From NCBI GenBank assembly GCA_016183435.1, contig JACPEQ010000011.1, forward strand, positions 1 through 54,355: a DNA stretch of 54,355 nucleotides, read 5' to 3'. Below the pieces are notes generated by a model that was not told where the DNA came from, did not search any database, and saw nothing but the letters and a program-made list of their open reading frames with translations. Positions within the stretch are counted from its first letter, which is position 1. Each line of letters begins with the position of its first letter. The stretch comes from Chloroflexota bacterium. Lineage in GTDB: Bacteria; Chloroflexota; Limnocylindria; P2-11E. Below are positions 1,657-41,739 of the stretch, in pieces. Position numbers and translations under genes: made by a program.

Positions 1657-1816
1657 AAGCGCCTGCGGCTAAAGGCGGCGCGCGCAGCGCGACCGCCGAG
1701 AAGAAAGCGCCTGCGCCGTGAAAGCGCCTGCGGCCAAAGGCGGCGCGCGCAGCGCGACCGCCGAGAGGAAAGCGGCTGCGGCTAAAGGCGGCGCGCGCAG
1801 CGCGACCGCCGAGAGG
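1656..1816 (+). repeat. 48-bp tandem repeat, about 3.3 units, each unit containing a GC-rich bulged hairpin
   Basis: Units aaagcgSctgcggcYaaaggcggcgcgcgcagcgcgaccgccgagaRg lie at 1656-1703, 1721-1768 and 1769-1816, with a 17-nt partial unit at 1704-1720. The core ggcggcgcgcgcagcgcgaccgcc folds as 5+5 bp with a gca triloop. Confidence 0.9.
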
Positions 1817-3160: not shown

Positions 3161-3162
3161 CG

Positions 3163-3546
3163 ATGGAGATCCGACCCAGCCACAGCGAGGACGCGCCGAA
3201 GGCCGTCGGCCCGTACAGCCAGGCGATCGTCGCGGGAGAGCTCATCTTCTGCTCCGGTCAGATCCCGCTCGATCCCGCGACCGGCAAGATCGTCGAAGGC
3301 GACATCGCGGTCCAGACCGGGCGCGTGCTCGACAACCTCGCGGCCGTCCTCAGCGCCGCCGGCAGCGGGCTCGCGCAGGTCGTCAAGACGACCGTCTTCC
3401 TCGCGGACCTGAGCGACTTCAACGCCATGAACGAGGCGTACGCGCTCAAGTTCGGGCAGCACCGGCCCGCGCGCTCGACCTTCCAGGTCGCGGCGCTGCC
3501 GCGCGGTGCGCGCATCGAGATCGAATGCGTCGCGATAAGGAGGTAG
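3163..3546 (+). CDS. ridA: RidA family reactive-intermediate (enamine/imine) deaminase
   Basis: 127 aa with APKAVGPYSQAI, GQIPLDPATG and a C-terminal ARIEIE block typical of YjgF/RidA. Confidence 0.9.
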   Translation: MEIRPSHSEDAPKAVGPYSQAIVAGELIFCSGQIPLDPATGKIVEGDIAVQTGRVLDNLAAVLSAAGSGLAQVVKTTVFLADLSDFNAMNEAYALKFGQHRPARSTFQVAALPRGARIEIECVAIRR

Positions 3547-3607
3547 CGGGCGAAGGCCCCGAGCGACCTTCCCTCCCGCCGCTCGCGACGGGGATCTCGC
3601 TCGGCCT

Positions 3608-5716
<2,109 letters not shown>

Positions 5717-5770
5717 GCGGATCCGGCTCTGCCGGGCCAGAGCGAACTCCTGAAGAGCGAGCGAAGCGAC

Positions 5771-5791
5771 TATCCGGGCGAAGCCCGGATA
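5771..5791 (+). terminator. Possible selB terminator or stabiliser hairpin (weak U tract)
   Basis: Perfect 9-bp stem tatccgggc/gcccggata with a gaa loop, followed only by tt. A second hairpin gctctg-ccgggc-cagagc lies about 30 nt upstream. Confidence 0.3.
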
Positions 5792-5812
5792 TTGAGCAGG
5801 GAGGGACACCGC

Positions 5813-7288
5813 GTGAAGTTCCGTGCCGTACGCGCGTCCGATCTCGGTAACGTGGACGCGCTCATCGTCCCGGTGTTCGAGTCCGGCGAGGCGCCGGCCG
5901 TGGTCTCGAGACCCGTGCGCTCCGCCGTCGAGCGCGTCCGCCGCGAGACGGGCAGGCACAAGCTCTACACCGCGACGACGCACATCGGTGGGGAGCGCGG
6001 CGTCCCGACGTGCCTCGTGATCGTCGACGCCGGCGACAGGGGCGACTGGAGCGCCGAGCGCGCCCGCAACGTCGCGGCCGCCGGCGTGAAGAGCCTGTGG
6101 CGCTCGACGGCGAAACGGGCGGCGGTCGTCCTCAGCGCCGACGGCATCGGCGCCGATCGCGCCGCGCAGGCCACGGTCGAGGGCGCGATCTATTCGATGT
6201 GGAGACCTGAGGTGCACCGTTCGGCCGCGGCCGACCGCAAGCTGCCGCCCCTGGCGAGCCTGGCGCTCGTCACGACCGAGAAGGCGGACCTCAAGGCGGC
6301 GATCCGCCGGGGCGAGGCTGTCGGCGACGCCGTGAACGTCGCGCGCCGGCTCGCGAACGAGCCGGCCAACAAGATGACCCCGACGATCCTCGCGGACGAG
6401 GCACGGGTGCTCGCGAAGGAGCACGGCATCGAGATCGACGTCTTCGACCGCGAGCGCTGCCGCAAACTCGGCATGAACTCGTACCTCTCGGTCGCACAGG
6501 GGAGCCACGAGCCGCCCCGCTTCATCGTCATGCGCTGGCGCGGGCGCGGCGGGCGCGGCTACGACATCGCGTTCGTGGGGAAGGGGATCACGTTCGACTC
6601 CGGTGGGATCTCCATCAAGGGGGCCGAGGGCCTGCACCACATGAAGGCGGACATGACCGGGGCGGCGTCGGTGGTGGCCGCGATCGCCGCCGTGGCGCGC
6701 CTGGGCACGAAGGCCAACGTCCTCGCCGTCGCCCCGTGCACCGAGAACCTGCCAGGCGGCGGCGCGACGAAGCCGGGCGACGTGTTCACGTCGATGAGCG
6801 GCCGCACCGTCGAGGTGATCAACACCGACGCGGAGGGGCGGCTCGTGCTCGTGGACGGCGTCACCTACGCGCAGCGCGAGGGCGCGCGCCGCGTCGTCGA
6901 CGTGGCCACGCTCACCGGCGCGATCCAGATCGCGCTCGGCAACCACTTCACCGGGCTGTTCGGGCGGCCCGACGGCTTCGTGCAGGAGGTCCGCGCCGCC
7001 GGGACGGCCGCGGGCGATCGGCTCTGGCCGATGCCGCTCACAGACGAGTACCGCGAGGAGATCCGCAGCGAGATCGCCGACATCGCGAACAGCGCCGGGC
7101 GCGAGGGCGGCGCGATCAAGGGGGCGGCGTTCATCGACTCCGTCGTCGACGACGGCACCGAGTGGGCACACCTCGACATCGCCAGCACCTACTGGTCGGA
7201 CAAGGATCGCCCGCAGTCGCCGAAGGGACCGCAGGGTCCCGCCGTCCGCACGCTCATCGAGCTGGCGGCGCGTGCGGCGCGCGAGTAA
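5813..7288 (+). CDS. pepA: Leucyl aminopeptidase (M17)
   Basis: [15 protein letters not shown] and [10 protein letters not shown] motifs. GTG 5813 is preceded by gggaggg at SD distance. The ORF also opens at TTG 5792. Confidence 0.9.
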
Positions 7289-18783: not shown

Positions 18784-19601
18784 GCGGGCCCGACCGACCC
18801 ATCGGGGTCTTCGACTCCGGTGTCGGCGGCCTCACGGTCCTCAAGGAGCTTCGCCGCCAGCTGCCGAACGAGTCGACGGTCTACCTCGGGGACGAGGCGC
18901 GCATGCCCTACGGCGAGCGCGAGGCCGCGGAGGTCGTGGAATTCACACGCAAAGCCGTGCAATGGTTCGAGCGCGAAGCACAGCCAAAGTTGATCCTCAT
19001 CGCGTGTAACACGGCGACGGCCGTCGCGCTCGAGATAGTGCGTGAGGAGTCATCCGTGCCGGTGATCGGCGTGATCCGTCCAGGTGCTTCGGCGGCGCTG
19101 ACCGCCACCTCCAGGCGAGCAGTTGGCGTCTTGGCCACGCGATTGACCGTGCGATCGGGCGCCTATTTCCGGGCACTGCGGGATCTCGACCCTCTGATCG
19201 ACGTCATCCAGCAGCCGGCGCCGAAGCTCGTGCCGCTGATCGAGGCCGGCGGCGCGCGGTCGGACGAGGCGCGCGCCGCGGTCCGTGAATACATCGCGCC
19301 GATGCTGAGCGAAGGCGCAGTAGTGGCGCCAGGTGTCGACACGATCCTTCTCGGCTGCACGCACTATCCGTTGGTAAGGTGGGCCATCGAGCAGATCACG
19401 GGCCCGGTCGTGCGCGTCGTCGACTCCGCGACCACGACAGCGCTTGCGGTGCGAGAGGTCCTGGACTCGCATCGTCTGCGTGCGACGGGAGACACGCCGA
19501 CCCAACGCGTTCACGCGACCGGCTCCTTGGACACGTTCGTGCAAGTCGCGCGCGCAATGTTCGGTCAGGCGACTGAGGTACATCCTGCGACTTTGTCCTA
19601 A
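18780..19601 (+). CDS. murI: Glutamate racemase (compositionally mosaic)
   Basis: IGVFDSGVGGLTVLKEL, ACNTA and GCTHYP catalytic blocks with a GTGA overlap. By hand count, GC drops from about 71% (18781-18880) to about 58% (18941-19040). Confidence 0.9.
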   Translation: MSGPDRPIGVFDSGVGGLTVLKELRRQLPNESTVYLGDEARMPYGEREAAEVVEFTRKAVQWFEREAQPKLILIACNTATAVALEIVREESSVPVIGVIRPGASAALTATSRRAVGVLATRLTVRSGAYFRALRDLDPLIDVIQQPAPKLVPLIEAGGARSDEARAAVREYIAPMLSEGAVVAPGVDTILLGCTHYPLVRWAIEQITGPVVRVVDSATTTALAVREVLDSHRLRATGDTPTQRVHATGSLDTFVQVARAMFGQATEVHPATLS

Positions 19602-20087
19602 GGCTCCCGCCTTCGAGATACTGGTTTCCCGAACTGGTGCGCCGTCGTCCTGGCTTCGGAGAAATTCCGAAGCTCAGGCCTTTCCACTCTCAGGTGGTCC
19701 ACGAAAGCCGGGTCAACTCCACTCCTATGCGGCCTCGCCTGTAGCGCGCCACACGCCGCCAGCTTCTGAGAACTGCTCCTCCTTGGTCCGGACATCGCGG
19801 GAACGATCGCATTGACAGCCAGGACAGTGGTAGTCCGCCGCCCGTACTCCGCTTGGCTGCGCTTGGCGCCAGAGCTCGAGGTTCTCCGGCCGGTTGTCGT
19901 CCCGACGCCCATTCTTGTGATGCACGCGCTCATTGGGCTCGAGGTAGCGTCCCTGGATGGAGTGGCAAGCGCCCGCGAGCGCGCTCGCGTTCTACGAACG
20001 CCTTGGTTTGAAGGGTGATGCCTGTCCCGATCCAGGTCACCCGTTCTTCGAGATCGACTTCGCTAGGACCGACAAGTCCCGTCCAGC
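19602..20087. mobile_element. Low-GC insertion remnant carrying a decayed HNH endonuclease gene
   Basis: About 59% GC (19601-19700, hand count). It lies between intact murI and a displaced native murI 3' fragment. Hairpin gcttcgga-gaaat-tccgaagc at about 19653-19675. Confidence 0.55.
19725..20060 (-). pseudogene. HNH endonuclease, truncated and frameshifted
   Basis: Minus-strand translation ACHSIQGRYLEPNERVHHKNGRRDDNRPENLELWRQAQPSG matches the HNH core. The frame is closed by TAG at 19992-19994 with no start, and the upstream part (..TKAFVERERARG) is in another frame. Confidence 0.7.
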
Positions 20088-20306
20088 GTGAAGCCGCCAG
20101 GTGCGCCGAAGCTCGTCCCGCTCATCGAGGCCGTCGGTGCGAGGTCGGAAGAGGCTCGCGAGGTGCTGGACTCGCACGGCCTGCGCGCGCTCGGCGGCAT
20201 GGCGACACATGAGGTGTTCGCCACGGGGGAAGGCCGCCGCTTCCGGGAGATCGCGAAGACGATGTTCCGCGAGGACGTGATCGTGAACGAGGCGGTCCTC
20301 GCGTGA
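20088..20306 (+). pseudogene. Displaced native 3' fragment of murI with an internal deletion
   Basis: APKLVPLIEAVGARSEEAR joined directly to EVLDSHGLRA..ATG....F..IAKTMF parallels murI residues APKLVPLIEAGGARSDEAR ... EVLDSHRLRA..ATG. It has host-like high GC, and its TGA overlaps the ychF GTG (GTGA). Confidence 0.75.
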
Positions 20307-21403
20307 ACGTCGTCACCACGATCACCGGGCTGCCGTTCGTCGGGAAGACGACGCTGTTCGACCTTCTCACCGGGCAGCACGTCGCGACCGGGACGTTCGC
20401 CGGCGCCGAGGCGGAGACGAACGTCGGCGTGGCCAAGGTCCCCGACGAGCGGCTCGACAGGCTCGTCCCGCTCTTCAAGCCGAAGAAGACCACCCACGCC
20501 GAGATCACCTATCGCGACCTCGGCCTCGCGAAGGGCGGGGGAGAGATCAGCACGAAGAAGCTCGGCGACCTACGCACGTCCGACGCGCTGCTGCACGTGG
20601 TGCGGGCGTTCCGTGATCCGACCGTGCCGCATCCGGAGGGCTCGGTCGATCCCGTGCGCGACCTCGCGACGCTCGATCTCGAGCTCGTGGTGTCCGACCA
20701 CTCCGTCGTCGAACGGCGGATCGAGCGGATCGAGCCGGAGATCCGCGGCGCGCGCGCGGGAGGGGAGCGCGAGGCGAAGGAGCGCGAGCGGGACCTGCTG
20801 CGGCGGTGCCTCGCGGCGCTCGACGCGGAGACGCCGCTACGCGAGCTCGACCTCGAGGCGGAGGAGCTGAAGGTACTGCGCGGCTACCGCTTCCTGACGC
20901 TCATGCCGCAGCTGGTCGTCGTGAACCTGGATGAGGCCGACGTCGCCGCTCCGGACGCGACGCTCGCGCCGGTCCGTGCGGCGGCGTCGACGCACCGCTC
21001 GACCGGGGTCGTCCACGTCTGCGCGAAGCTCGAGGCCGAGATCGCCGAGCTGTCACCGGAGGAGGCGACGGCCTTCCGCGAAGAGGCCGGCCTGCACGAG
21101 CCGGCGCTCGACCGCGTGCTGCGCGCGACGTACGACCTGCTCGGGCTCATCTCCTTCTTCACGGTCGGCCCCGACGAATGCCGCGCGTGGACGGTCCGCA
21201 AGGGCGCCACGGCCCCTGAAGCGGCCGGGGCGATCCACTCGGACCTCGAGCGCGGCTTCATCCGCGCGGAGGTCACGAAGTGGGACGACATGCTCCGTGC
21301 CGGCTCCGAGGCGGAGGCGAAGAAACACGCGCTGACGAGAACGATCGGCAAAGACGCGGTCGTGAACGACGGCGAGATCGTCCACGTGCTGTTCAACGTG
21401 TGA
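20303..21403 (+). CDS. ychF: YchF-type (Obg family) GTPase/ATPase, divergent
   Basis: P-loop GLPFVGKTTLFDLLTG and the C-terminal DUF933/TGS-like block ECRAWTVRKGATAPEAAGAIHSDLERGFIRAEV. Confidence 0.85.
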   Translation: MNVVTTITGLPFVGKTTLFDLLTGQHVATGTFAGAEAETNVGVAKVPDERLDRLVPLFKPKKTTHAEITYRDLGLAKGGGEISTKKLGDLRTSDALLHVVRAFRDPTVPHPEGSVDPVRDLATLDLELVVSDHSVVERRIERIEPEIRGARAGGEREAKERERDLLRRCLAALDAETPLRELDLEAEELKVLRGYRFLTLMPQLVVVNLDEADVAAPDATLAPVRAAASTHRSTGVVHVCAKLEAEIAELSPEEATAFREEAGLHEPALDRVLRATYDLLGLISFFTVGPDECRAWTVRKGATAPEAAGAIHSDLERGFIRAEVTKWDDMLRAGSEAEAKKHALTRTIGKDAVVNDGEIVHVLFNV

Positions 21404-21419
21404 TCTCGAGCGTCCCGCT

Positions 21420-22097
21420 CTAGTCCTCGGTCAGGTGGAAGAACTCCTTCCGCAGCTCGGGGTCCTCGGCGTAGAACCCGCGCCACGTCTGGGTCCGCGT
21501 CTTCGGGCTGACCTCACGGACACCGCGCATCTGGGTGCACAGGTGGTGGGCCTCGATGTGCACCGCGACGCCGTGCGCATTCACGAGCGACTGGAGCGCC
21601 TCGGCGATCTGATCGCCCATGCGCTCCTGCACCGTGAAGCGCTTCGCGAACACGCGCACGATCCTGGTCAGCTTCGAGATCCCGATGATCTGCTCGTGGG
21701 CGATGTAGCACACGTACGCCTGTCCGTGGAAGGGGAAGGCGTGGTGCTCGCACAGGGCGAAGAAGGGGATGGGCCCTTCGACGATCTGGTCGACGTGGCA
21801 CGCCGCGCCGCCCTTGCACTCGGTCGGGAAGGCCGTGAGCACCTTGGGGTCACCCTCGTAACCCTCGGTCGCGTCGTAGAGCGCGCGGACGAAGCGGCGC
21901 GGAGTGTCGCGCGTGCCGGGCTCGTCGACGGCCATGCCGAACGCCTCGAAGAGCTCGCGGACATAGCCCTCGAAGGTCGCCCACTGCTCGTCGGAGAGCT
22001 CGCGCCTGCGGACGAGCAGGGGCGAGCGGACCTCCTCGTCGTCCGCGGGCAGATGGGAGTGCGCGACGGCCTGCGGTGGCGTGGCTCCGCGGTCCAC
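21420..22097 (-). CDS. folE: GTP cyclohydrolase I (type 1)
   Basis: ALCEHHAFPFHG, ISKLTRIVRVFAKRFTVQERM and HHLCTQMRGV blocks. The start is assigned to GTG 22097; the longer ORF to 22355 is Arg/Pro-rich and runs into the repeat. Confidence 0.85.
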   Translation of the reverse strand: MDRGATPPQAVAHSHLPADDEEVRSPLLVRRRELSDEQWATFEGYVRELFEAFGMAVDEPGTRDTPRRFVRALYDATEGYEGDPKVLTAFPTECKGGAACHVDQIVEGPIPFFALCEHHAFPFHGQAYVCYIAHEQIIGISKLTRIVRVFAKRFTVQERMGDQIAEALQSLVNAHGVAVHIEAHHLCTQMRGVREVSPKTRTQTWRGFYAEDPELRKEFFHLTED

Positions 22098-22169
22098 TGC
22101 GTCCCAGTATGTCCGCCTGCGAGACTGAGCGTCGTGGTGCCGGACTGAGCGAGCGCGCCCGATCCCTCT

Positions 22170-22332
22170 CGATCGGCCACGTCGCACGGGACGAGTTCCC
22201 CGACGGGGCCCACCGGCTCGGCGGCACGGCGCTCTACGCGGCGGCGACCGCCGCTCATCTGGGCGTCCCGAGCGCTCTCGTGACGCGCGTCGGCCCGAAC
22301 GAGAGGGCCGAGCTGACGCGCACGTGTGCCGA
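22170..22332 (+). repeat. Direct repeat copy 1 (start-less pfkB 5' fragment)
   Basis: 163 nt matching 24864-25026 with one mismatch by my alignment. It encodes IGHVARDEFPDGAHRLGGTALYAAATAAHLGVPSALVTRVGPNERAELTRTCAE but lacks the start region. Confidence 0.95.
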
Positions 22333-22358
22333 ATCCTGAGCGCGCTGCTCTTCAACGT

Positions 22359-22694
22359 CTAGGGAGCGCCGAGGCCGATGACCTCCTCGACGGGCAGCAC
22401 GAAGAGGAACCCGACCCCCGGCTGATCGAGGTCGCCGGCCCGGACCATCGCGCGAACCACCGCCTCGGCGTCGCGTTCCGGCACGACGACGAGCACGATC
22501 TCCTTCTCCGGCTCGACGGCGAGCCCGAGCAGGCCGAGCCGCTCGCGGATACCCAGCCCGCGACCGAAGAACGCGACCGCGCTCTGCGCGCCCGCCTTCA
22601 GCGCGGCCCTGATCGGCCGTTCGGCGCGTCCACGCTGGACGATGGCCACGATCATCCGGCTCGCACCGTTCGCGCCTCGCGCCATGTCGCTCAT
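22359..22694 (-). CDS. PII-like (GlnB superfamily) small signalling protein B
   Basis: 111 aa with the beta-alpha-beta-beta-alpha-beta pattern MIVAIVQRGRAE..AALKAGA....F.GRGLGIRE...PEKEIVLVVV...GFLFVLPVEEV. Its ATG overlaps the upstream stop (ATGA). Confidence 0.8.
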   Translation of the reverse strand: MSDMARGANGASRMIVAIVQRGRAERPIRAALKAGAQSAVAFFGRGLGIRERLGLLGLAVEPEKEIVLVVVPERDAEAVVRAMVRAGDLDQPGVGFLFVLPVEEVIGLGAP

Positions 22695-23032
22695 CGCGCG
22701 TCCTCCCTGATCGCTTCGAGCAGCCCGACGACGTGCGCGACCGGCACCGTGATCACGCGGTCGGATGCTCCGTACCCGTCGGCCGCCGCCCCGACCATCG
22801 CCCGCGCGACATCGCCCGCTATGCCTGGATCGACCACAGTGAGCAGGACCTCCTTCTCGGCCTGGATCGCGAGCCCGGACGCGCCGACCTGCTGATGAGC
22901 GTCGTATCCACGGCCCACGAACACCGTCGCCGCCTGAGCGCCGGCGCGTATCGCCGCGCCCGCGTGGCGGTCACCTTCTCCCCTCGGGACCACGGCGATG
23001 ATGAGCCGCGGGCGGGCGCCGGCCGCGCTCAC
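22691..23032 (-). CDS. PII-like (GlnB superfamily) small signalling protein A
   Basis: 113 aa, RLIIAVVPRGEGDR..AIRAGAQAATVFVGRGYDAHQQ...AEKEVLLTVV...VITVPVAHVVGL. The GTG start overlaps the DUF1538 stop (GTGA). Confidence 0.75.
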   Translation of the reverse strand: MSAAGARPRLIIAVVPRGEGDRHAGAAIRAGAQAATVFVGRGYDAHQQVGASGLAIQAEKEVLLTVVDPGIAGDVARAMVGAAADGYGASDRVITVPVAHVVGLLEAIREDAR

Positions 23033-24717
23033 GGCGAGGGTCCGGTCTGTGGCGACATGGACACCGACCGGTCGTGCTCGAGCACCGCGGAGGGCCGGAC
23101 GCTGGTATGCGACACGACGAGCCCGAGCCCGAGCACGGTGAGGATCGGCCCGATCGAGGCCAGCGCCAGCATGCCGAACGCGTCTGAGACGCCGACGCTC
23201 CCGCCGATCCCGAGTCCCATGGCGAGCACGAGCGGGACCGTGATCGGGCCGGTCGTCACGCCGGCGCTGTCCCAGCCCACGTTCGTGTACTTCTCGTCCG
23301 AGACCGCCGTCACGACCATCAGCGCGAGGTACGGTGGGATCACCAGGACCGCGATCGGGACGTCGAACATGACCTTCGCGATCCCCGCCGCGAGGCCGAG
23401 GCCGACCCCGACCGCGACGGCCTGGATGAGGAGGGTCTTGCGGAAGGCGCCGGCGGTCACCTCCTCGACGGTGATGCCCATCGCGTTGAGCGCCGGCTCC
23501 GCCATCGTGGCCCCATATCCGAGGACGAAGGCGAACGCGACCGTGACCAGACGGCCGCCGACCTCGCCGTACAGCGCGACAGGCGGGGAGAACGCGTTCG
23601 GGACGTTGCTGCCGACCTGCTGGCCGAGCGTGACCAGGCCGGTGCTCAGCCCGAGGTTGAACAGCCCGAGGCCGATGACGGCGAGGATGAGACCGAGCGT
23701 GATCTGGTCGAGTCGGCGCACTCGCTCGCGCAGGACGATGCGCTGGATGACCAGGAGGAACGCTGCCAGCGGGATGACCGCCTGGAGGGCGGACTGCATC
23801 GAGACGAGCATCAGCTCGGCGAGCGACGGAGCCGGACCGCTCGCGGAGGCGGACGGAGCGAGCACGCTCGCCATCGCCGCTCCGCCGCCGACGTAGAAGA
23901 CGGCGAGCGCCAGCGACAGCACCGTCGCGACCGGCCACAGTGACGCGAGCGTCACGATCCCGAAGCCGCTCATCCCGGTGTCCGACCTGCCTAGCACCGC
24001 GGACACGCCCAGGCCGAGCGCGAGCACGAGAGGGACGGTCACCGGTCCGGTCGTGATCCCGCCGGTGTCCCATGCGAGCGCGACGACGTCGCGTGTGTCG
24101 GGATGCATCTGCGCGATCACGGTCAGCGCGAGGCAGCCGGCGAGCGATGGGAACAGCAGCAGCTTCAGGCTCCAGCCGCGCGCGAACCGGTACACACCGA
24201 GCACCGTGGCGATCCCAACTCCGATGCCGATCATGAGGATGAGCAGCGGAGAGCTCCGTCCGAGCAGCTCGTGGAGCAGCGGAGCGTCCTCCGCGCTGAT
24301 GCCCGAGCCGGCTGCTTTGAGCGTGCTGATCGCCGGCTCGGCGTAGGTCGCGCCCAGGCCGATCACGAACGCGATCGCGAGGATCACCCACATCCTCGCT
24401 CGTCGGGGCAGCGTCGCGCCGATGTTCTCGCCGAGCGGCATGAGCCCGAGGCGGAGGCCCTCCATGAAGAACATCAGGCCGAGGATCACGAGGGTCAGTC
24501 CGAGGGCGATGCCGACGGCGCCCGCGACGCTCAGGCGCAGTGCGACCAGCTGGAAGAGGAGGAGGAACAGCGAGATCGGTGCGACCGCGATCACCTGTGC
24601 CTTGATCCGATCCATCACGAACGGGCCGAGGATCGAAAGGACGAGACGCGGTGTGATGGGAATGCGGTAGCGGACCGCGGCCGACCGAGTGTGGTCGGCG
24701 GTGGAATGGGCCTCCAC
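23029..24717 (-). CDS. DUF1538 family integral membrane protein (internally duplicated)
   Basis: Two homologous halves, each with a GATYAEPA / GYGATMAEPA block and a WDTGGITTGPVTVPLVLALGLG / WDSAGVTTGPITVPLVLAMGLG block. The start is taken as GTG 24717 (agggggcagc upstream), with ATG 24615 as an alternative. The ORF-track extension to 24921 runs into the repeat and is Arg-rich. Confidence 0.8.
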   Translation of the reverse strand: MEAHSTADHTRSAAVRYRIPITPRLVLSILGPFVMDRIKAQVIAVAPISLFLLLFQLVALRLSVAGAVGIALGLTLVILGLMFFMEGLRLGLMPLGENIGATLPRRARMWVILAIAFVIGLGATYAEPAISTLKAAGSGISAEDAPLLHELLGRSSPLLILMIGIGVGIATVLGVYRFARGWSLKLLLFPSLAGCLALTVIAQMHPDTRDVVALAWDTGGITTGPVTVPLVLALGLGVSAVLGRSDTGMSGFGIVTLASLWPVATVLSLALAVFYVGGGAAMASVLAPSASASGPAPSLAELMLVSMQSALQAVIPLAAFLLVIQRIVLRERVRRLDQITLGLILAVIGLGLFNLGLSTGLVTLGQQVGSNVPNAFSPPVALYGEVGGRLVTVAFAFVLGYGATMAEPALNAMGITVEEVTAGAFRKTLLIQAVAVGVGLGLAAGIAKVMFDVPIAVLVIPPYLALMVVTAVSDEKYTNVGWDSAGVTTGPITVPLVLAMGLGIGGSVGVSDAFGMLALASIGPILTVLGLGLVVSHTSVRPSAVLEHDRSVSMSPQTGPSP

Positions 24718-24850
24718 GCTGCCCCCTTGGGCCCCCTTCACTTCGGCGCGGAGCCTAGCGGCCCTCCGTACGCTCGGGATACGGGCGAACGGTCGTTCGA
24801 GCGAGCGCGCCGACCGCGCGGGCCTGATGCTTCGCCTCGTGCGGGACCGG

Positions 24851-25687
24851 GTGCGCTTCCTCGCGATCGGCCACGTCGCACGGGACGAGTTCCCCGACGG
24901 GGCACACCGGCTCGGCGGCACGGCGCTCTACGCGGCGGCGACCGCCGCTCATCTGGGCGTCCCGAGCGCTCTCGTGACGCGCGTCGGCCCGAACGAGAGG
25001 GCCGAGCTGACGCGCACGTGTGCCGAGCTTGGCATCGACCTCCGCGCGCTCGACGCGCTCGTCACGACGACGTTCGCCTTCCGCTGGGACGGGACCGGCA
25101 AGCGGATCCTGCGCCTGAAGGCGCGCGCGAAGGCGATCGCGCTCGCCGACGTCCCCGATGACCTGCGCGCGGCCGATGCGCTCGTCCTCGGATCGATCGC
25201 GCGCGAGCTGTCGGAGGACCTGCTGCTCGGCGAGACCGCACGGATCTCGGTGCTCGCCGCGCAGGGTCTCTTGCGGACATGGGACGCGGACGGCACGGTC
25301 CGGCCGGCGACCTGGGACCGCGCCGAGCAGGACATCCGCGCCCTGTCCGCGGTCGTGCTCAGCGACGAGGACGTCGCGGGCGATGCGGGCGCGGTGGCGC
25401 GCTGGTCGGCGGTCGTGCCCGTGGTGCTGACCCTCGCCGATCGGGGCTGCCGCATCTACGAGCGCGGGCATCCGACCGTCGAGCTCCGTGCGTATCCGCC
25501 GGCGCGCATGGTGGACACGACCGGGGCGGGCGACACGTTCGCGGCGGGCCTGGCCGTCGCGCTCGGTGAGGGCCGCGCTCTCGCCGATGCATGCCGGTTC
25601 GCCAATGCCGTCGCGTCCTTCGGGCTCGAAGGGCCCGGCATCGCGGGCCTGGCGACGCGTGAGGCCGTGGAGCGGCGGCTAGGCTAG
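24851..25687 (+). CDS. PfkB-family carbohydrate kinase
   Basis: N-terminal VRFLAIGHVARD and the C-terminal anion-hole motif DTTGAGDTFAAG. The start is GTG 24851, in frame with the track ORF. Confidence 0.85.
   Translation: MRFLAIGHVARDEFPDGAHRLGGTALYAAATAAHLGVPSALVTRVGPNERAELTRTCAELGIDLRALDALVTTTFAFRWDGTGKRILRLKARAKAIALADVPDDLRAADALVLGSIARELSEDLLLGETARISVLAAQGLLRTWDADGTVRPATWDRAEQDIRALSAVVLSDEDVAGDAGAVARWSAVVPVVLTLADRGCRIYERGHPTVELRAYPPARMVDTTGAGDTFAAGLAVALGEGRALADACRFANAVASFGLEGPGIAGLATREAVERRLG
24864..25026 (+). repeat. Direct repeat copy 2 (5' end of the intact pfkB-family gene)
   Basis: See copy 1. A further 13-nt match, gagcgagcgcgcc, lies upstream of both copies (22147 and 24799). Confidence 0.95.
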
Positions 25688-25694
25688 ATCGCGC

Positions 25695-28600
25695 ATGCTG
25701 CGGTGCCCCGTCTGCAACGCCGACAACCCTGAGGCCGCGCGTTTCTGCAACAGCTGCGGGAACCGCCTGCCCGAGCGGAAGACGACGGGCACGTCCGAAC
25801 GCAAGGTCGTGACCGTCCTCTTCTGCGACGTGAAGGGCTCGACCGCGCTGGCGGAGAAGCTCGATCCCGAGGAGTGGACCGAGGTCATCGACGGCGCGTT
25901 CCGGACGCTGACCCCGCCGATCCAGCGCTACGGCGGCACGGTCGCGCGGCTCCTCGGCGACGCGGTCCTGGCGTTCTTCGGCGCGCCGGTCGCGCATGAG
26001 GACGATCCTGAGCGCGCGCTCCGCGCGGGGCTCGAGATGCTCCAGGCGACGGTGGCCTACCGCGAGCGGCTGGTGCGCGAGCGCGGCGCGTCCTTCAGCG
26101 AGTTCGACATCCGCATCGGCATCAACACCGGCCTCGCGGTCATCGGCGACGTCGGCGGCGGCCAGGCGGTCGAGTACACGGGGATGGGGGACGCCGTGAA
26201 CGTCGCCGCGCGGCTGCAGTCGCTCGCGAAGCCCGGGGCCATGCTCGTGTCCGAGCACACCCTGAAGCTCGTTCCGCCGGTCTTCGACTGGGAGCCGGCG
26301 GGCCAGCTCGACCTCACGGGCCGCGAGGGGAAGCTCGAGGCCTTCGTCGTCCGCGGGCTCGCGGCGGCGGTCACGCGCGCGAAGCCGCGCGGGCTCATTA
26401 CGCCGCTCGTCGGTCGCGATCGCGAGATGGCTGCGCTGCGGGACGCGCTCGCCGAGCTGCGTCGCGGCGGCGGCCGCATCGTCTCGGTGATCGGCGACGC
26501 CGGGCTGGGGAAGACCCGCCTCATCGACGAGTTCCGGCGAGAGTGGGAGGCGGCGCCCGTCGACGGCCAGCGCTGGAGCGAAGCGCGCGGGCAGTCGTAC
26601 GAGCAGGCGCGGCCGTACGGCCTCATCCGTCAGCATCTCCTCTCGCTCGGAGGCGCGAGCGAGGCCGACCCGCCCGACGTCATCCGCGGGCGCGTGACGG
26701 CCCTGCTGCCCGAGGAGCGTCGCGCCGACGAGCGGTCCCTCCGCACCCTGGAGGTCTTCCTCGCCGTCGAGCCGGTCGCCGCGACTCCCGGGCCGGAGGG
26801 CCAGGAGCTGCGCGCCGAGCTGCACGCGCTCATGCGCGACGTCGCGCGCGGCCTCGCGGCGTGCCAGGCCGTGTTCGTCTTCGACGACCTGCAGTGGTCG
26901 GATCCCGCGTCCGCCGAGCTGCTGATGGAGACGCTCGAGATCGCTGACGAGCTGCCGGTGCTGTTCATCTGCTCCTTTCGCCCTGACCGCCAGGCGCCGT
27001 CGTGGCGGGTGAAGCAGAAGCTCGAGACGGACTTCCCGCATCGCTCGCGCGAGCTGGTGCTCGAGCCGCTCTCCGGTACGGACAGCGCGTCGCTCCTGGA
27101 CCATCTGCTGCCGGGGCGAGGGGTCCCGGAGGACCTTCGCGAGCTGATCCTCGAGAAGGCCGAGGGGAACCCCATGTTCCTCGAGGAGATCGTGCGGACC
27201 CTCATGGACGATGGGACGATCGTTCGTGACGGAGCGGGCTGGCGGGTCACGCGTGAGGTCGCGGCGATCGCGCTCCCGGGATCGCTGCGGGCGGTGCTCG
27301 CGGCGCGCATCGACCGCCTCGACGCCGATGCGCGCGAGACGCTTCAGGCGGCCTCGGTCATCGGCCGCACCTTCCTGTACCGGATCCTCGCGTCCATTCG
27401 CGAGGCGAGCGCGACGCTCGATCGTCAGCTGCTGGCGCTGCAGCGTCTCGAGCTCGTCCGCGAGCAGGCCCGCGAGCCCGAGCGGGAGTACGCGTTCCGC
27501 CATGCGCTCACCCAGGAGGCCGCGTACGGGTCGATCCTCCAGCGCCGGAGGCGCGAGCTCCACGCGCGCGTCGGGGAAGCGCTCCAGCGGCTCTTCCCGG
27601 ACCGCATGGAGGAGCTGGCGGCGATCGTCGGACACCACTACGCGGAGGCCGGGGACGCCCGCGCGGTCGGGCTCCTGCGCATCGCCGGCGATCGGGCCTC
27701 GCGTCTCTTCGCCGTCGACGACGCGATCATGCACTACCGGCGCGCCGTCTCGCTCCTTCGCCCGGCCGAGGAAGAGCCCGAGCTGCTGTGCGCCATCTAC
27801 GCGAAGTACGGTCGCGCCCTCGAGCTCCAGGGCTCCTATCCCGAGGCGCTCGCGCTTTATCGCGACCTCGAGCGGATCGGCCAGGAGCGCGGCGACCTCG
27901 GCATCGAGGCGGCCGCGCTCTCGAGCCAGATCACGGTGCACTCGAACCCGACGCCGCTCATCGACCCGAAGCGCGCCGCGGAGCTCGCCGAGCGGTCGAT
28001 CGGGGTCGCTCGGAAGCGCGGCGACCGCCGCCTCCTCGCGCGGCTGCTGTGGAACAAGGGGCAGGCGGGCATGTGGCGGGGGGAGCCGGACGCGGGCAGC
28101 GAGGCGGGCATCGAGTCGGTCACGATCGCTCGCGAGATCGGCGACACGGAGCAGCTCGCGTACTCGCTGAACGGGCTCGGGCAGTCGTACCGCGAGCTCG
28201 CGCGCCTCGACGACGCGGAGCGCGTGCTCACGGAGTCGGTCGCGCTCTTCCGCGAGGTGGGGAACCGCGCGATGGAGGCGGACAGCCTGAGCACGCTCGC
28301 GTTCATCCACGTCGGCCGCGGCGACCTCGAGAGGGCGCTCCGGTCAGGCGAAGAGGCGTACCGCATCAGCGACGAGATCGACAACGCGTGGGGCCGCGGC
28401 TACGGGCTGTTCACGCCGTCGTACGTGCACGCCATCCGCGGTGACCTCGGAAAGGCGCTCGACACCTATGAGGAGTGCGTGCGGTGGGCGGAGCTCGGCG
28501 GCTTCTACGCCGCGGTCACCGGCCCCGGGTCGGACCTCGGCTGGCTCTACGTCGCGTGCGGCGACACCGATCGAGGCCTCGCGCACCTCGAGCGGGTCGC

Positions 28601-29213
28601 CGAGCTGTCACGGCGGCAGTTCCCCAGATGGCAGGCGTGGCCGCTCGCGCAGACGGCGAGGGCCCTCCTCCTCGTCGGCCAGGTCGCGCGGGCGAGCCAG
28701 GTGCTCGCCACCGCGAAAGAGGTCGCCGCCGAGGGTGAGAGCGGGCCGCGCCGCCGAGAGGTGTTCATGGCCACGTACCTGTCGCTGGCGTCGGCGGAGC
28801 TCGCGCTCGCGGCCGGGCGCTTCGGCGAGGCCGCGAGGGTCGCCGCCGAAGGGGCCGTCCAGCTCGCTGCGCTCAAGGTCCGCCCGGACACGCTCGAGTT
28901 CTACCTGCTCGAGGCCGAGGCGCGCGTCTCCGCGGGTGACCTGTCCGGGGCCGAGGCAGCGATCGCGCGCGCACAGGAGAACGCCGACGCGCTCGGTGCT
29001 CGGGCGCAGGTGTGGCGGATCCTCGCGGTCCGCGCACGCGTGGCCGAGTCGCGCGGACAGGCCGATGCGGCGATGCGCCACTGGCGGGACGCCGCCGCCG
29101 CCGCCGAGGAGATCGCGGCCACGCTGCGCCCGCGGGGTCTCGACGATCGCTTCCGGGCCCGGCCCGACGTGAGCGCGGTCCTGTCACGGGCCCGGGTCGC
29201 TCCCGGGCGATGA
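25695..29213 (+). CDS. Zinc-ribbon / class III adenylate-guanylate cyclase / AAA(STAND) ATPase / TPR multidomain protein
   Basis: CPVCNADNPEAARFCNSCG ribbon, cyclase block VVTVLFCDVKGST..GDAVLAFFG..IGINTG, P-loop GDAGLGKTRL, and a long C-terminal TPR-like repeat region. Confidence 0.85.
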   Translation: MLRCPVCNADNPEAARFCNSCGNRLPERKTTGTSERKVVTVLFCDVKGSTALAEKLDPEEWTEVIDGAFRTLTPPIQRYGGTVARLLGDAVLAFFGAPVAHEDDPERALRAGLEMLQATVAYRERLVRERGASFSEFDIRIGINTGLAVIGDVGGGQAVEYTGMGDAVNVAARLQSLAKPGAMLVSEHTLKLVPPVFDWEPAGQLDLTGREGKLEAFVVRGLAAAVTRAKPRGLITPLVGRDREMAALRDALAELRRGGGRIVSVIGDAGLGKTRLIDEFRREWEAAPVDGQRWSEARGQSYEQARPYGLIRQHLLSLGGASEADPPDVIRGRVTALLPEERRADERSLRTLEVFLAVEPVAATPGPEGQELRAELHALMRDVARGLAACQAVFVFDDLQWSDPASAELLMETLEIADELPVLFICSFRPDRQAPSWRVKQKLETDFPHRSRELVLEPLSGTDSASLLDHLLPGRGVPEDLRELILEKAEGNPMFLEEIVRTLMDDGTIVRDGAGWRVTREVAAIALPGSLRAVLAARIDRLDADARETLQAASVIGRTFLYRILASIREASATLDRQLLALQRLELVREQAREPEREYAFRHALTQEAAYGSILQRRRRELHARVGEALQRLFPDRMEELAAIVGHHYAEAGDARAVGLLRIAGDRASRLFAVDDAIMHYRRAVSLLRPAEEEPELLCAIYAKYGRALELQGSYPEALALYRDLERIGQERGDLGIEAAALSSQITVHSNPTPLIDPKRAAELAERSIGVARKRGDRRLLARLLWNKGQAGMWRGEPDAGSEAGIESVTIAREIGDTEQLAYSLNGLGQSYRELARLDDAERVLTESVALFREVGNRAMEADSLSTLAFIHVGRGDLERALRSGEEAYRISDEIDNAWGRGYGLFTPSYVHAIRGDLGKALDTYEECVRWAELGGFYAAVTGPGSDLGWLYVACGDTDRGLAHLERVAELSRRQFPRWQAWPLAQTARALLLVGQVARASQVLATAKEVAAEGESGPRRREVFMATYLSLASAELALAAGRFGEAARVAAEGAVQLAALKVRPDTLEFYLLEAEARVSAGDLSGAEAAIARAQENADALGARAQVWRILAVRARVAESRGQADAAMRHWRDAAAAAEEIAATLRPRGLDDRFRARPDVSAVLSRARVAPGR

Positions 29214-30025
29214 GGCCGCGGCGCACGCTCCTCGTCGCGCTGGCGCATCCGGACGACGAGACGTTCGGCGTCGGCGGTGTCATGGCCCGCGCGGTCGACG
29301 AGGGTCATCACGTCGTCATCGTGTGCGCGACTCGCGGCGAGGCCGGTGAGATCGCGGATCCGTCCCTGGCGACGCCGGAGACGCTCGGCGCGGTGCGTGA
29401 GCGGGAGCTGCGCAGCGCGGCGCGGGCCCTAGGCGTCGACGACGTGCGCTTCCTGGGACACCGCGACTCCGGGATGGCCGGCACGCCGGAGAACCAGCAC
29501 CCCGCCGCGCTGCTGAACGCGGATCCGCAGCTGGTCGTGGGGCAGCTCGTGGGCGTGATACGCGACGTGCGCCCCGACGTGCTCGTGACGTTCGAGCCGG
29601 GCGGGATCTACGGGCACCCGGACCACGTCACGATCAGCGAGCGCGCGACGGCCGCGGTCGAGGCGGCGGGTGACGCGACGCACTGGCCTGAAGCGGGGAA
29701 GCCGCACCGCGTGCCGCGCCTGTACTACGTCGCGCTGCCGCGCAGCGTGCTCCGCGAGTTCCGGAGCGCCGCCGAAGCCGCCGGTGTGCAGTGGGGCCTC
29801 GCTGACGCGATGCGGGTCGAGCAGGCGGTGGACGACAAGGACATCGACGCCGCGCTCGACGTCACGCCGTGGATCGCCCGCAAGAAGGCCGCGGTCGCCG
29901 CGCATGCGACACAGCTCGGGACGATGCAGAAGATGCCGGAAGGCTTCACCGAGCGCATGTTCTCGCGCGAGTGGTTCGTCCTCGCGCGCGGCGAGCGCGA
30001 CGGGGAGCTGCTGGCCGGGCTGTAG
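29210..30025 (+). CDS. PIG-L/LmbE family deacetylase
   Basis: ATGA overlap with the cyclase gene. It carries the AHPDDETFG motif and HPDH. Confidence 0.85.
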   Translation: MRPRRTLLVALAHPDDETFGVGGVMARAVDEGHHVVIVCATRGEAGEIADPSLATPETLGAVRERELRSAARALGVDDVRFLGHRDSGMAGTPENQHPAALLNADPQLVVGQLVGVIRDVRPDVLVTFEPGGIYGHPDHVTISERATAAVEAAGDATHWPEAGKPHRVPRLYYVALPRSVLREFRSAAEAAGVQWGLADAMRVEQAVDDKDIDAALDVTPWIARKKAAVAAHATQLGTMQKMPEGFTERMFSREWFVLARGERDGELLAGL

Positions 30026-39795: not shown

Positions 39796-41739
39796 TCAGG
39801 CCAGGCCTGGCTCCGGGCGCCGGCGGGCCTCGACCGCTTCGAGCACGAAGGGCAGGACGAGCATGATCGCGAGGATCACCCCGAGGGCGAGGGCGACGAG
39901 CGCACGGGTGTCGGCGTCCATCGTCGGAGGCAGCACCGTACGTACCACGCTCGGCAGCCCCGCGATCGCCACGGCGCACATGGCGAGGACGTAGGCGATC
40001 GAGGCGACCACGTAGACGAGGGCGCCGGCCTCGCGGCGCGACGCCGGCCGCCGCGGCCGGCCGAGGTCGCCGAACACGGATCGCATCGCCTTGCGGCGGA
40101 GCGCGTTGGTGTCGGTGAGGTCGGCGAGGACGTAGTAGCCGTCGAACTCCAGCAGCGGTGAGAGGTTGAAGACGACGAGGACCACGTTCGTCAGCGCGAG
40201 CCACGCGAGCACGTCCTGCGGCGTGCCGCTCGCGAGCCGCGCGCCGAGGCCGAACACGCCCGCGAGCGCGAGGTTGAACAGCGGACCGGCGGCGTTCACG
40301 CGGATGCGTCCCCAGCGTGGGATCGCCCACGTCGCCGAGGTGTCGACGTACACGACGGGCGTGAACCAGAAGAGGCCGATCCCGGCGCGCCCGAGCCGGG
40401 CGCCCTCCGCCTTCGCGGCCAGCGCGTGCGCGATCTCGTGTCCGACCCCGGCCAGCAGGAGCGCGACGAACGCCACGAGGATCCCGGCGATGCCGAAGTC
40501 CAGCGGTGACGCCGTGCGGAGCGCGGGGATCGCCGCGATGAGGCCGCCGACGCCCAGGGCCGTCGCGCCGATCGCGGCCGGCGCGCTGAACGCCGGCGCG
40601 ACGATCCGCAGCAGCCCGGCGACGAGCCCATCCGGGTCGCCGATCTCGATCCGCGGCGCGAGCACCGCGTCGAGCGCCCGCAGGAGCCGGCCGTCGGGGG
40701 CGTCGGCCGCCATGCGAGGGGCCGTCGCGAATCCCGCGACCTGGAGGGCGGCGACCGTCGAGAAGACCGCGTGCGGGTCGAGCGTTCCGGTGCGCTCGAA
40801 GTGCCGGAGCGAGAGGTCGCGCAGGGTGTGCTCGCCGTCGAGGTCCCGGTAGATCGCGAGCGCCTGGCGGTCGAGCCGCAGGTACGCGCCACGCTCGGGA
40901 TCCTCGAGGATCACCGCGTTCGGGTCGTCGGGTGCGGGCTCGATGCGATGCTCGCCGGTGCGCAGCGGCGAGTGGCGCGCCTGCATGACCGAGGTGACGC
41001 GGTCGAGCAACGCGCGGTGGCGCTTCACGACGTCGCGGACGTCCTCGCCGCTGACGACGAGCGCGTCGACGTCGGTGAGCGCACGCACGGTCGCCGTGCG
41101 GGGCGATCCGGTGAGCGCGGCGATCTCCCCGACCAGCGTGCCCGGTCCGAGGCGCGCCAGCGGCCGCTCGCCGTCGGCGTCCTCTCTTGCGGCCTCGACC
41201 TGGCCCTCGCGGAGGAGCAGCACGTCGTCGCCGCGCTCGCCCTGCCGCATGAGGACGGACCCCGCCGCGAAGCGCTGTGGCCGGAGCCTCGCCCCGAGAC
41301 GCTCGATCTCCTCCGACGGGAGGTCCGAGAACGGTCCCTGGGTGCGGAGGAACCGGCTCGCGCGTCGCGCGTCGGCGAAGGCGTGCAGCGTCCGCGCGAA
41401 GCCCTCGTGCGACGCGACGACCCGGCGGACCTCCCCAGCGTCGATGCGGAGCGCGCGCACCGGCTCGAGCGCCACGACGTCGGCGGAGCGCCGGCGGCCT
41501 TCGAGGACCGCGAGCTCGCCGACGAGGGCCGGCGCGGTCAACGTCGCGAGGACATTCCCGTCCGGAGCGCTGACCCGGACGCGCCCCGCGAGGATCGCGT
41601 AGGCGGCGCGGGGCTCGTCGCCGGCGCGCAGGAGGTGCTCTCCCTTGACCACGCGGATCTCGGGGGCCGCCGCGAGCGCGAGCGCCCCGCGGACCGCCTC
41701 CGGAAGCTCGAGGAAAGGTCCGAAGTCCAAGGCGCCCAT
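39796..41739 (-). CDS. Tandem cyclic-nucleotide-binding domains fused to an M50 (site-2 protease) membrane metalloprotease
   Basis: Two cNMP blocks (GELAVLEGRRRSADVVA and GEIAALTGSPRTATVRA), then TM helices with HEIAHAL (HExxH) and NLSPLLEFDGYY (NxxPxxxxDG). Confidence 0.85.
   Translation of the reverse strand: MGALDFGPFLELPEAVRGALALAAAPEIRVVKGEHLLRAGDEPRAAYAILAGRVRVSAPDGNVLATLTAPALVGELAVLEGRRRSADVVALEPVRALRIDAGEVRRVVASHEGFARTLHAFADARRASRFLRTQGPFSDLPSEEIERLGARLRPQRFAAGSVLMRQGERGDDVLLLREGQVEAAREDADGERPLARLGPGTLVGEIAALTGSPRTATVRALTDVDALVVSGEDVRDVVKRHRALLDRVTSVMQARHSPLRTGEHRIEPAPDDPNAVILEDPERGAYLRLDRQALAIYRDLDGEHTLRDLSLRHFERTGTLDPHAVFSTVAALQVAGFATAPRMAADAPDGRLLRALDAVLAPRIEIGDPDGLVAGLLRIVAPAFSAPAAIGATALGVGGLIAAIPALRTASPLDFGIAGILVAFVALLLAGVGHEIAHALAAKAEGARLGRAGIGLFWFTPVVYVDTSATWAIPRWGRIRVNAAGPLFNLALAGVFGLGARLASGTPQDVLAWLALTNVVLVVFNLSPLLEFDGYYVLADLTDTNALRRKAMRSVFGDLGRPRRPASRREAGALVYVVASIAYVLAMCAVAIAGLPSVVRTVLPPTMDADTRALVALALGVILAIMLVLPFVLEAVEARRRPEPGLA

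Follow-up and report, generated by a model that had tools for sequence, protein, structure and literature searches.

The stretch of DNA analyzed here (54,355 nt; hereafter the window) is a contig of 72% G+C, JACPEQ010000011.1, from a Chloroflexi metagenome-assembled genome. Its minus strand carries three head-to-tail genes, which encode a DUF1538 membrane protein and two small PII-like proteins, PII-mid and PII-last. The results described below lead us to the interpretation, held with moderate confidence, that this trio encodes a cation/proton transporter of the DUF1538/UmpAB family that is gated by its own heteromeric PII module, possibly under the control of cyclic AMP (cAMP). Comparison with other genomes indicates that the trio belongs to a module that is very widespread. 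In the related loci, the first small gene after DUF1538 is denoted PII-A and the second PII-B. The three genes of the window are as follows:

23029..24717, minus strand: DUF1538 membrane protein, an UmpA-like half fused to an UmpB-like half, 562 amino acids (assigned by Pfam, NCBIfam, AlphaFold2 and the identity between the halves)
22691..23032, minus strand: PII-mid, a diverged PII-fold paralogue, 113 amino acids, GTG start (assigned by the PII-A profile, AlphaFold2 and Foldseek)
22359..22694, minus strand: PII-last, a DUF1538-associated protein of the PII-A type, 111 amino acids, ATG start (assigned by Pfam P-II and the PII-A profile)

The conservation of this arrangement was analyzed in 80 genome loci with DUF1538 relatives and in four metagenome loci, using PII profiles built for this purpose. 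A PII gene is located immediately downstream of DUF1538 in 83 of the 84 loci (79 of the 80 genome loci). The survey covers Chloroflexi, Planctomycetota, Nitrospinota, Nitrospirota, Alpha-, Beta-, Gamma- and Zetaproteobacteria, Bdellovibrionota and others, and the pairing was also found in Clostridia and, as a split UmpA/UmpB-like form, in Methylocystis. A 4 nt NTGA overlap is possible in 43 of 82 loci, and 25 more loci have a gap of 0–40 nt. PII-B directly follows PII-A in 69 of 82 loci; the two are only about 12% identical, yet hhalign relates them with a probability of 99.3% (E 1.5e-20). The T-loop RG.G.RERLGLLG.AV..EKE and the B-loop LDTPG.G of PII-A are conserved across phyla, and both are present in PII-last. 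Trios of the window type, with two PII genes after DUF1538, occur in the loci L085, L086 and L087. A first reading of the window, which was made from the sequence only, had proposed a cassette of a candidate transporter and PII-like proteins, with a compilation of synteny as a check. The compilation over the surveyed loci identifies this cassette as a conserved module rather than a chance arrangement. The sole surveyed locus without a PII match is L045, in which DUF1538 (3830–5632) is split into the open reading frames (ORFs) 3830–4972 and 4982–5632; this locus looks disrupted and may represent a frameshift, a pseudogene or an assembly error. The DUF1538 family comprises more than 8000 sequence clusters at 90% identity. 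In the searchable literature (DUF1538, UmpAB, PF07556 and PII T-loop/antiporter/cAMP), no paper was found that describes a link between DUF1538 and PII.

Within the window, both gene overlaps are located exactly where the sequence-only reading had placed them. The GTGA at 23029–23032 is formed by the TGA stop codon of DUF1538 (23031–23029) and the GTG start codon of PII-mid (23032–23030), and in the ATGA at 22691–22694 the ATG of PII-last overlaps the stop codon of PII-mid. Two Shine-Dalgarno-like motifs were read from the sequence:

22701..22708, minus strand: AGGGAGGA, 6 nt upstream of the ATG at 22694, inside the end of PII-mid
24722..24728, minus strand: AAGGGGG, 4 nt upstream of the GTG at 24717

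Two of the starts differ in the NCBI annotation. For DUF1538, the annotated start is the GTG at 24741, eight codons farther upstream, resulting in 570 amino acids. For PII-last, it is Met14 (22655), resulting in 98 amino acids and turning the ATGA overlap into a gap of 36 nt. The longer form of PII-last is favored because homologues have N-terminal extensions. Rfam scans (Na+, Li+ and cyclic di-AMP riboswitches, and others) gave no match upstream of DUF1538 in 15 diverse loci, and no riboswitch or other family matched positions 19000–30000 of the window. A scan of 21300–25800 for promoters and terminators was uninformative.

At other loci, the PII-like domains are fused. On Clostridia plasmids, the DUF1538 gene is followed by a gene for one protein of 222–224 amino acids, in which a diverged PII-like domain precedes an A-like one, matching the order in the window; in Methylocystis, a split UmpA/UmpB-like pair is followed by one PII. 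A search with PII-last against 1.84 billion representative sequences yielded 693 matches at E ≤ 1e-10. The best 148 of these 693 matches include 89 proteins with two tandem PII-like domains and 41 with three. Both of the di-PII proteins that were checked adjoin DUF1538, and all three of the tri-PII proteins that were checked are encoded directly downstream of it:

L091, 5001–6128: tri-PII protein P0244, directly after the DUF1538 gene
L092, 4001–5074: tri-PII protein P0257, directly after the DUF1538 gene
L093, 4001–5143: tri-PII protein P0247, directly after the DUF1538 gene

These tri-PII proteins are single chains of 357–380 amino acids with three tandem PII-like domains and would constitute covalent PII pseudo-trimers. 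No description of this architecture was found in the papers searched. Because gene fusions join PII domains, the separate PIIs of one locus probably also share one trimer-like body with non-equivalent positions. Thus, the di-PII and tri-PII chains adjoining DUF1538 lend independent support to the earlier idea of a hetero-oligomer, which we now rate as likely. At L092, the tri-PII gene is followed on the same strand (5084–7248) by genes for a 522-amino-acid protein with MgtE_N and CBS domains and for a DUF1003 protein, that is, by cation-related neighbors.

The membrane protein matches Pfam DUF1538 (PF07556) in two stretches, with an E-value of 1.8e-107 and 357.9 bits against a cut-off of 22.6. 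An internal duplication had been recognized from the sequence, and it is borne out by the comparison of the two halves, which are 33.7% identical over 249 amino acids (E 2.8e-34; profile-profile E 7e-42). Each half had also been described to contain an AEPA block and a WD..G.TTGP.TVPL block. In 69 homologues with 47–78% identity, these blocks are invariant in both halves, and so are E127 and D217 in the first half and E407 and D483 in the second, the two aspartates belonging to the TTGP motifs. The AlphaFold2 model is confident (predicted local distance difference test score, pLDDT, 88.3; predicted template-modelling score 0.87), and the AEPA and TTGP motifs are found at its helix-break-helix positions. 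The mean counts of lysine plus arginine are opposite between equivalent loops of the two halves. This loop bias and the secondary structure suggest a topology of 7 + 7 helices in inverted orientation, with both termini inside. A Foldseek search of the model against the PDB retrieved nothing significant (best E 0.12, template-modelling (TM) score ≤ 0.19, no SbtA entry among the matches), and a sequence search of the PDB gave no match. Because of the Foldseek result, no known transporter superfamily could be assigned, and by this test the predicted fold would have no solved relative in the PDB and would be neither SbtA-like nor NhaA-like.

A function of one member of the DUF1538 family has been studied experimentally. 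A paper of 2017 (Meng et al., PMC5484666) described UmpAB of Halomonas zhaodongensis as a Na+(Li+,K+)/H+ antiporter. UmpA and UmpB form a heterodimer, and their co-expression rescues the Na+/H+-antiporter-deficient E. coli strain KNabc. In everted vesicles, UmpAB exchanges Na+, Li+ and K+ for H+, with optimal activity at pH 9 and K0.5 values of 0.26–0.46 mM (PMC5484666). Later papers cite UmpAB only as a salt-adaptation antiporter, and DUF1538 has been listed among the ion-transport families that are predictive of growth pH (PMC13255231). Two NCBIfam equivalog models, NF041627 (UmpA) and NF041628 (UmpB), carry the name "Na,Li,K/H(+) antiporter subunit" and have cut-offs of 490 and 500 bits, respectively. 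UmpA matches residues 38–269 of the window protein with 201.2 bits, and UmpB matches residues 303–540 with 185.9 bits. The statement of the sequence-only reading that DUF1538 lacks an experimentally established function is therefore incorrect. Its label "unknown substrate" was overstated in view of the UmpAB precedent, although the scores are far below the cut-offs and the evidence comes from one distant member. UmpAB and the window protein belong to the same Pfam family, and the N-terminal half of the latter resembles UmpA and its C-terminal half UmpB, so that it would be a fused equivalent of the heterodimer. In contrast, UmpAB has split subunits and was described without PII, whereas the window protein is fused and has dedicated PII genes downstream, like nearly all surveyed relatives.

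The assignment of the two small proteins to the PII fold was addressed by profile and structure comparisons. The searches with hidden Markov models that the sequence-only reading had suggested placed PII-last only narrowly above the threshold of Pfam P-II (PF00543; 26.2 bits, cut-off 25). PII-mid had no Pfam match; the nearest of its homologues in which Pfam recognizes a P-II domain share about 50% identity with it. No NCBIfam model matched either protein. The AlphaFold2 model of PII-mid (pLDDT 81.5) has strands and helices in the PII order and a T-loop hairpin, and its top Foldseek matches are all PII/GlnK proteins (TM 0.62–0.73, probability 1.0). PII-last aligns end to end with PII chains in the PDB. 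These results corroborate the ferredoxin-like PII fold that had been deduced from the sequences. The best PDB sequence match of PII-last is NifI1 (chain 9p1x_H), and a joint profile of PII-mid and PII-last retrieves canonical PII and NifI1 from the PDB with E-values of about 1e-5. An assignment to the SbtB, CPII or PstA/DarA subfamilies was rejected, because no chain of any of them appeared in the PDB profile search with both proteins (E ≤ 1).

PII-mid and PII-last are 39% identical to each other. The T-loop of PII-last, RGLGIRERLGLLGLAVEPEKE, is of the conserved type; that of PII-mid is GRGYDAHQQVGASG, and its B-loop motif is lost. The T-loops had been characterized as short and non-canonical. 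The second attribute holds for their sequences, but the first one only partially, as the strand-T-loop-strand region is only about five residues shorter than in canonical PII. According to the alignments and the consensus, only the equivalents of R38, K58, G87 and G89 of canonical PII are kept. Residues with which canonical PII contacts 2-oxoglutarate and the phosphates of ATP are lost: Q39 is replaced by G, D88 by V or M and K90 by F, and the positions of R101 and R103 are not basic. The positions of PII-last that align with S49 and Y51, the phosphorylation/uridylylation sites, are both leucine. PII-mid has a tyrosine at the base of the T-loop and a serine near its end, neither of which fits the canonical motif, as judged without a residue-by-residue alignment. 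Neither protein contains cysteine. Because the effector residues and the Y51/S49 sites are not kept, the two proteins are unlikely to be nitrogen regulators that sense ATP and 2-oxoglutarate.

Against a PII-A profile built from 82 other loci, PII-last scored 124 bits and PII-mid 54.5 bits; with a score of only 16 bits against PII-B, PII-mid is a diverged A-type protein. Its roughly 30 conserved orthologues are confined to the Chloroflexi clade of the window, and the next relatives have a single PII. Because PII-mid is of the A-type and its orthologues are limited to this clade, the PII pair of the window is regarded as a Chloroflexi-specific duplication, by which the two-PII state was reached independently. 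Orthology with the proteobacterial PII-A/PII-B pair was rejected, as both window proteins are A-type and the gene order is reversed.

To characterize the genomic neighborhood, flanking ORFs within 4 kb were clustered and scanned with Pfam in the 80 genome loci. Genes for cyclases and/or for proteins binding cyclic nucleoside monophosphates (cNMPs) were found in 24 of the 80 loci, representing at least six lineages, and some of them are co-operonic. A cNMP-binding domain is present in 19 of these 24 loci, and class III cyclases, linked to CHASE2 or to FHA/GAF domains, occur in 12 loci. The commonest neighbors are Na+/H+ exchangers fused to a cNMP-binding domain. Their genes share an operon with the module in L012, L046, L062 and probably L071, and in Nitrospinota they are oriented divergently. 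Exchangers of the Na_H_Exchanger family with about 820–850 amino acids and a C-terminal cNMP domain adjoin the module or are co-operonic with it at L012 (1413–3869), L046 (6417–8957), L022 (1225–3711) and L062 (96–2582). In marine alphaproteobacterial genomes, an operon, seen at L013 (945–6274) with gaps of at most 40 nt, comprises genes for a CHASE2-class III cyclase, two stand-alone cNMP-binding proteins (146 and 155 amino acids), DUF1538, PII-A and PII-B. The same operon type is present at L011, L015, L033, L055, L056, L064 and L081. Nearby genes in Chloroflexi relatives encode a GAF-cyclase, a cNMP-GGDEF protein and a membrane protein that binds cNMPs. A P-type cation ATPase gene is located between two DUF1538 genes in Thiomicrospira microaerophila (L040: second DUF1538 gene at 38–1054, 905-amino-acid P-type ATPase at 1134–3851, directly upstream of DUF1538-PII-A-PII-B). 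We judge the enrichment of such genes near the module to be probably real, since cyclase and cNMP genes make up a small fraction of most genomes. A link between the module and cyclic nucleotides, which had been called speculative, has thus received backing from comparative genomics.

The mechanism that we propose for the trio combines these results. The transporter would be one chain of two homologous 7-helix repeats, probably in opposite orientation, with two broken helices each. Because of the homology with UmpAB, it would most likely exchange monovalent cations (Na+/K+/Li+) for protons. The invariant acidic residues at the helix breaks, the UmpA/UmpB matches and the Na+/H+ exchangers and the P-type ATPase among the neighbors all argue for a cation function. 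Via translational coupling, PII-mid and PII-last would be made in a fixed ratio, and they would assemble into one mixed, asymmetric PII trimer, in which PII-mid would take the non-equivalent positions. The T-loop of PII-last (RERLGLLG) would dock in the cytoplasmic face of the transporter and, upon binding of a small-molecule signal, block or lock the transporter, in the manner of GlnK on AmtB and of SbtB on SbtA. Given the loss of the binding residues, this signal would not be the canonical ATP/2-oxoglutarate; the leading candidate is an adenine nucleotide or a cAMP-related input. The substrate, the ligand, the physical binding and the plug are what we infer from the observed genes, folds, pairing, fusions and cNMP neighbors, and we consider gating of DUF1538 by PII to be plausible. 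A further-reaching interpretation seems possible rather than probable: the module might represent an undescribed class of PII-controlled transporters, in which a heteromeric or single-chain triple PII with one RERLGLLG plug acts on a structurally novel 14-helix inverted-repeat transporter and is wired to cAMP by adjacent cyclases, stand-alone cNMP proteins and cNMP-gated Na+/H+ exchangers.

Several points weigh against a cation/proton transporter that is gated by PII and possibly controlled by cAMP. With 201 and 186 bits versus 490 and 500, the window protein scores well under the UmpA/UmpB equivalog cut-offs; the comparison indicates a member of the DUF1538 family, for which orthology with UmpAB is not established. 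The evidence for UmpAB itself was obtained by one laboratory in a single complementation system and with dye-quenching assays, and UmpAB worked in E. coli without any PII, none being mentioned in that paper (PMC5484666). PII regulation has so far been described only with trimeric transporters (PMC10710835). The loss of Q39, D88, K90, R101 and R103 makes nucleotide binding by the two PII-like proteins uncertain. The cyclase gene of the window is divergent and separated from the cassette by a pfkB gene, and the cNMP-binding ORF is 15 kb away. Where separate cNMP-binding proteins are present, they, rather than PII, may sense cAMP. Lastly, if DUF1538 is itself a Na+/H+ antiporter, there would be partial redundancy where its operon encodes a further Na+/H+ exchanger.

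This last point leads to the main alternative, namely that the module is a Na+-coupled importer of bicarbonate, or of another anion, with a PII valve, and thus a functional analogue of SbtA/SbtB with an unrelated fold. The Na+/H+ exchanger or a Na+ pump would then recycle the coupling ion, and bicarbonate-responsive class III cyclases would provide cAMP. Such a Na+ cycle would suit the exchanger-cNMP fusions or P-type ATPase that are co-operonic or adjacent in several lineages better than redundant antiporters do, and the cyclase and cNMP genes in 24 of the 80 loci would fit as well, as SbtB is a cAMP-binding PII protein on a bicarbonate transporter (10.1101/2023.08.10.552651). In addition, about one quarter of the 80 loci are from recognizable chemolithoautotroph lineages (Nitrospina, Nitrospira, Hydrogenovibrio, Thiomicrospira, Gallionellaceae, Mariprofundaceae, Thiocystis, a lucinid symbiont and SAR324), and, by our reasoning, a dye-quenching assay at pH 9 could register the symport of Na+ and HCO3- into everted vesicles as if it were Na+/H+ antiport. 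However, the taxon list is skewed by similarity ranking, and the module is also found in Clostridia of the gut, in Bdellovibrionota and in marine Alphaproteobacteria that are heterotrophic. Genes for carbonic anhydrase, RuBisCO or carboxysomes are not among the recurrent neighbors within 4 kb of the module in the 80 loci, a single fragment of a beta-carbonic anhydrase at L002 being the only such case. There is no similarity in fold or sequence to SbtA or SbtB, the acidic nature of the invariant membrane residues is better suited to cations, and the sole experiment on the family revealed cation/proton antiport that includes K+ and Li+ (PMC5484666). A literature search for transporters of dissolved inorganic carbon in Hydrogenovibrio halophilus found nothing relevant. 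Altogether, we regard a bicarbonate importer as rather unlikely.

In a further alternative, DUF1538 would be a membrane sensor or anchor (transceptor) that sequesters PII in response to the ion or pH status, and the targets of PII would lie elsewhere, for example an exchanger or a cyclase, similar to the control of DraG by AmtB-bound GlnK. PII proteins commonly have multiple targets, and membrane sequestration is a known mode of their action (PMC10710835); the recurrent exchanger-cNMP fusions and cyclases could be the controlled elements, and the activity of UmpAB without PII would be accounted for. Yet 56 of the 80 loci lack such a neighbor, while the DUF1538-PII pair is kept in 79 of the 80. 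The tight translational coupling, the multi-PII fusions, which adjoined DUF1538 in every case checked, and the invariant transporter-like motifs point to genuine transport, so that we consider a mere sensor or anchor to be quite improbable. That the small genes are ordinary nitrogen-regulatory PII genes (GlnB/GlnK) and chance neighbors, as the NCBI label of PII-last ("P-II family nitrogen regulator") and canonical PII and NifI1 as nearest PDB sequences might imply, is hardly tenable, given a Pfam match at threshold for one gene and none for the other, the absence of an NCBIfam match, the missing Q39, D88, K90, R101, R103 and Y51/S49 sites, and the location of the subfamily beside DUF1538 in 83 of 84 loci and not beside amtB or glnA.

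A PII-gated DUF1538 transporter can be compared with three known systems. A review of 2023 names AmtB/Amt1, NrtABCD, UrtABCDE and SbtA as the only transporters controlled by PII (PMC10710835). As in GlnK-AmtB, a PII-fold gene adjoins and is co-expressed with a transporter gene, and the conserved T-loop contains arginine and is a candidate plug. In contrast to that system, DUF1538 is unrelated to AmtB and gives no sign of three-fold symmetry, the window PIIs lack the canonical ATP/2-oxoglutarate residues and the uridylylation site, and DUF1538 loci encode two or three non-identical PII modules, whereas GlnK is a homotrimer. With SbtB-SbtA, the module shares the operon of a transporter and a dedicated PII-like regulator as well as a comparative-genomic link to cAMP. 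However, the window PIIs have no SbtB match in the PDB profile search and lack the C-terminal CGPxGC redox R-loop, and the DUF1538 model has no fold match to SbtA. The SbtA/SbtB precedent of the sequence-only reading thus stands as a functional analogy, but not as a similarity of sequence or fold. The third system is NifI1/NifI2, a 2:1 heterotrimer on nitrogenase (PDB 9P1X) that has been described as the only known heteromeric PII (PMC12439982). It likewise comprises two differing tandem PII paralogues, NifI1 being the best PDB sequence match of PII-last, and it sets a precedent for the binding of an asymmetric target by a heteromeric PII trimer. The differences are that the target here would be a membrane transporter instead of nitrogenase, that there is no nif context, and that a heteromer is suggested by gene fusions alone.

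Upstream of the cassette, two genes are transcribed divergently from it:

24827..25687, plus strand: pfkB-family kinase (Pfam PfkB, E 8.6e-23)
25695..29213, plus strand: class III adenylate/guanylate cyclase with zinc ribbon, AAA_16 and TPR (Guanylate_cyc, E 2.1e-21; AAA_16, E 5.2e-23)

The cyclase gene is thus located about 1 kb from the cassette, beyond pfkB. The ORF 39796–41739 (minus strand, 647 amino acids, 15 kb from the cassette) has two N-terminal cNMP-binding domains and is presumably the "cNMP-binding protease" mentioned in the sequence-only reading. A direct repeat of 187 nt with 95% identity (22146–22332 and 24840–25026) brackets the whole cassette, and its core of 164 nt (22169–22332 and 24863–25026) contains one mismatch. 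The right copy corresponds to codons 13–67 of pfkB, and the left one lies between PII-last and folE as an orphan fragment. That the cassette is a mobile insertion flanked by this repeat is probably not the case, as L087, a relative with 79% identity, has the same order of cyclase, pfkB, cassette and YchF without the repeat-bearing folE segment. For the same reason, the repeat probably marks the rearrangement that brought folE in, rather than mobility of the cassette. The folE ORF (GTP cyclohydrolase I; 21420–22355, minus strand) has 311 codons for amino acids, and its Pfam domain begins at residue 130; the stretch before this domain is a long extension that crosses the orphan pfkB fragment in antisense and is unlikely to be translated.

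For annotation, the results imply that a role in nitrogen regulation is unlikely for the small proteins and that DUF1538 already has a published candidate function. With its confident predicted fold and no solved relative, DUF1538 is an attractive object for structural work. Few signalling proteins are as widespread as PII, and a DUF1538-PII system, if the proposed gating is true, would add a large new branch to PII biology, with members in many phyla. The rule that PII acts only on trimeric transporters would be broken by such a system, an asymmetric PII on an asymmetric transporter being a new solution, and it would provide the second example of a heteromeric PII after NifI1,2 and reveal single-chain triple-PII proteins. 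In addition, it would tie ion or pH homeostasis to cyclic-nucleotide signalling in bacteria.

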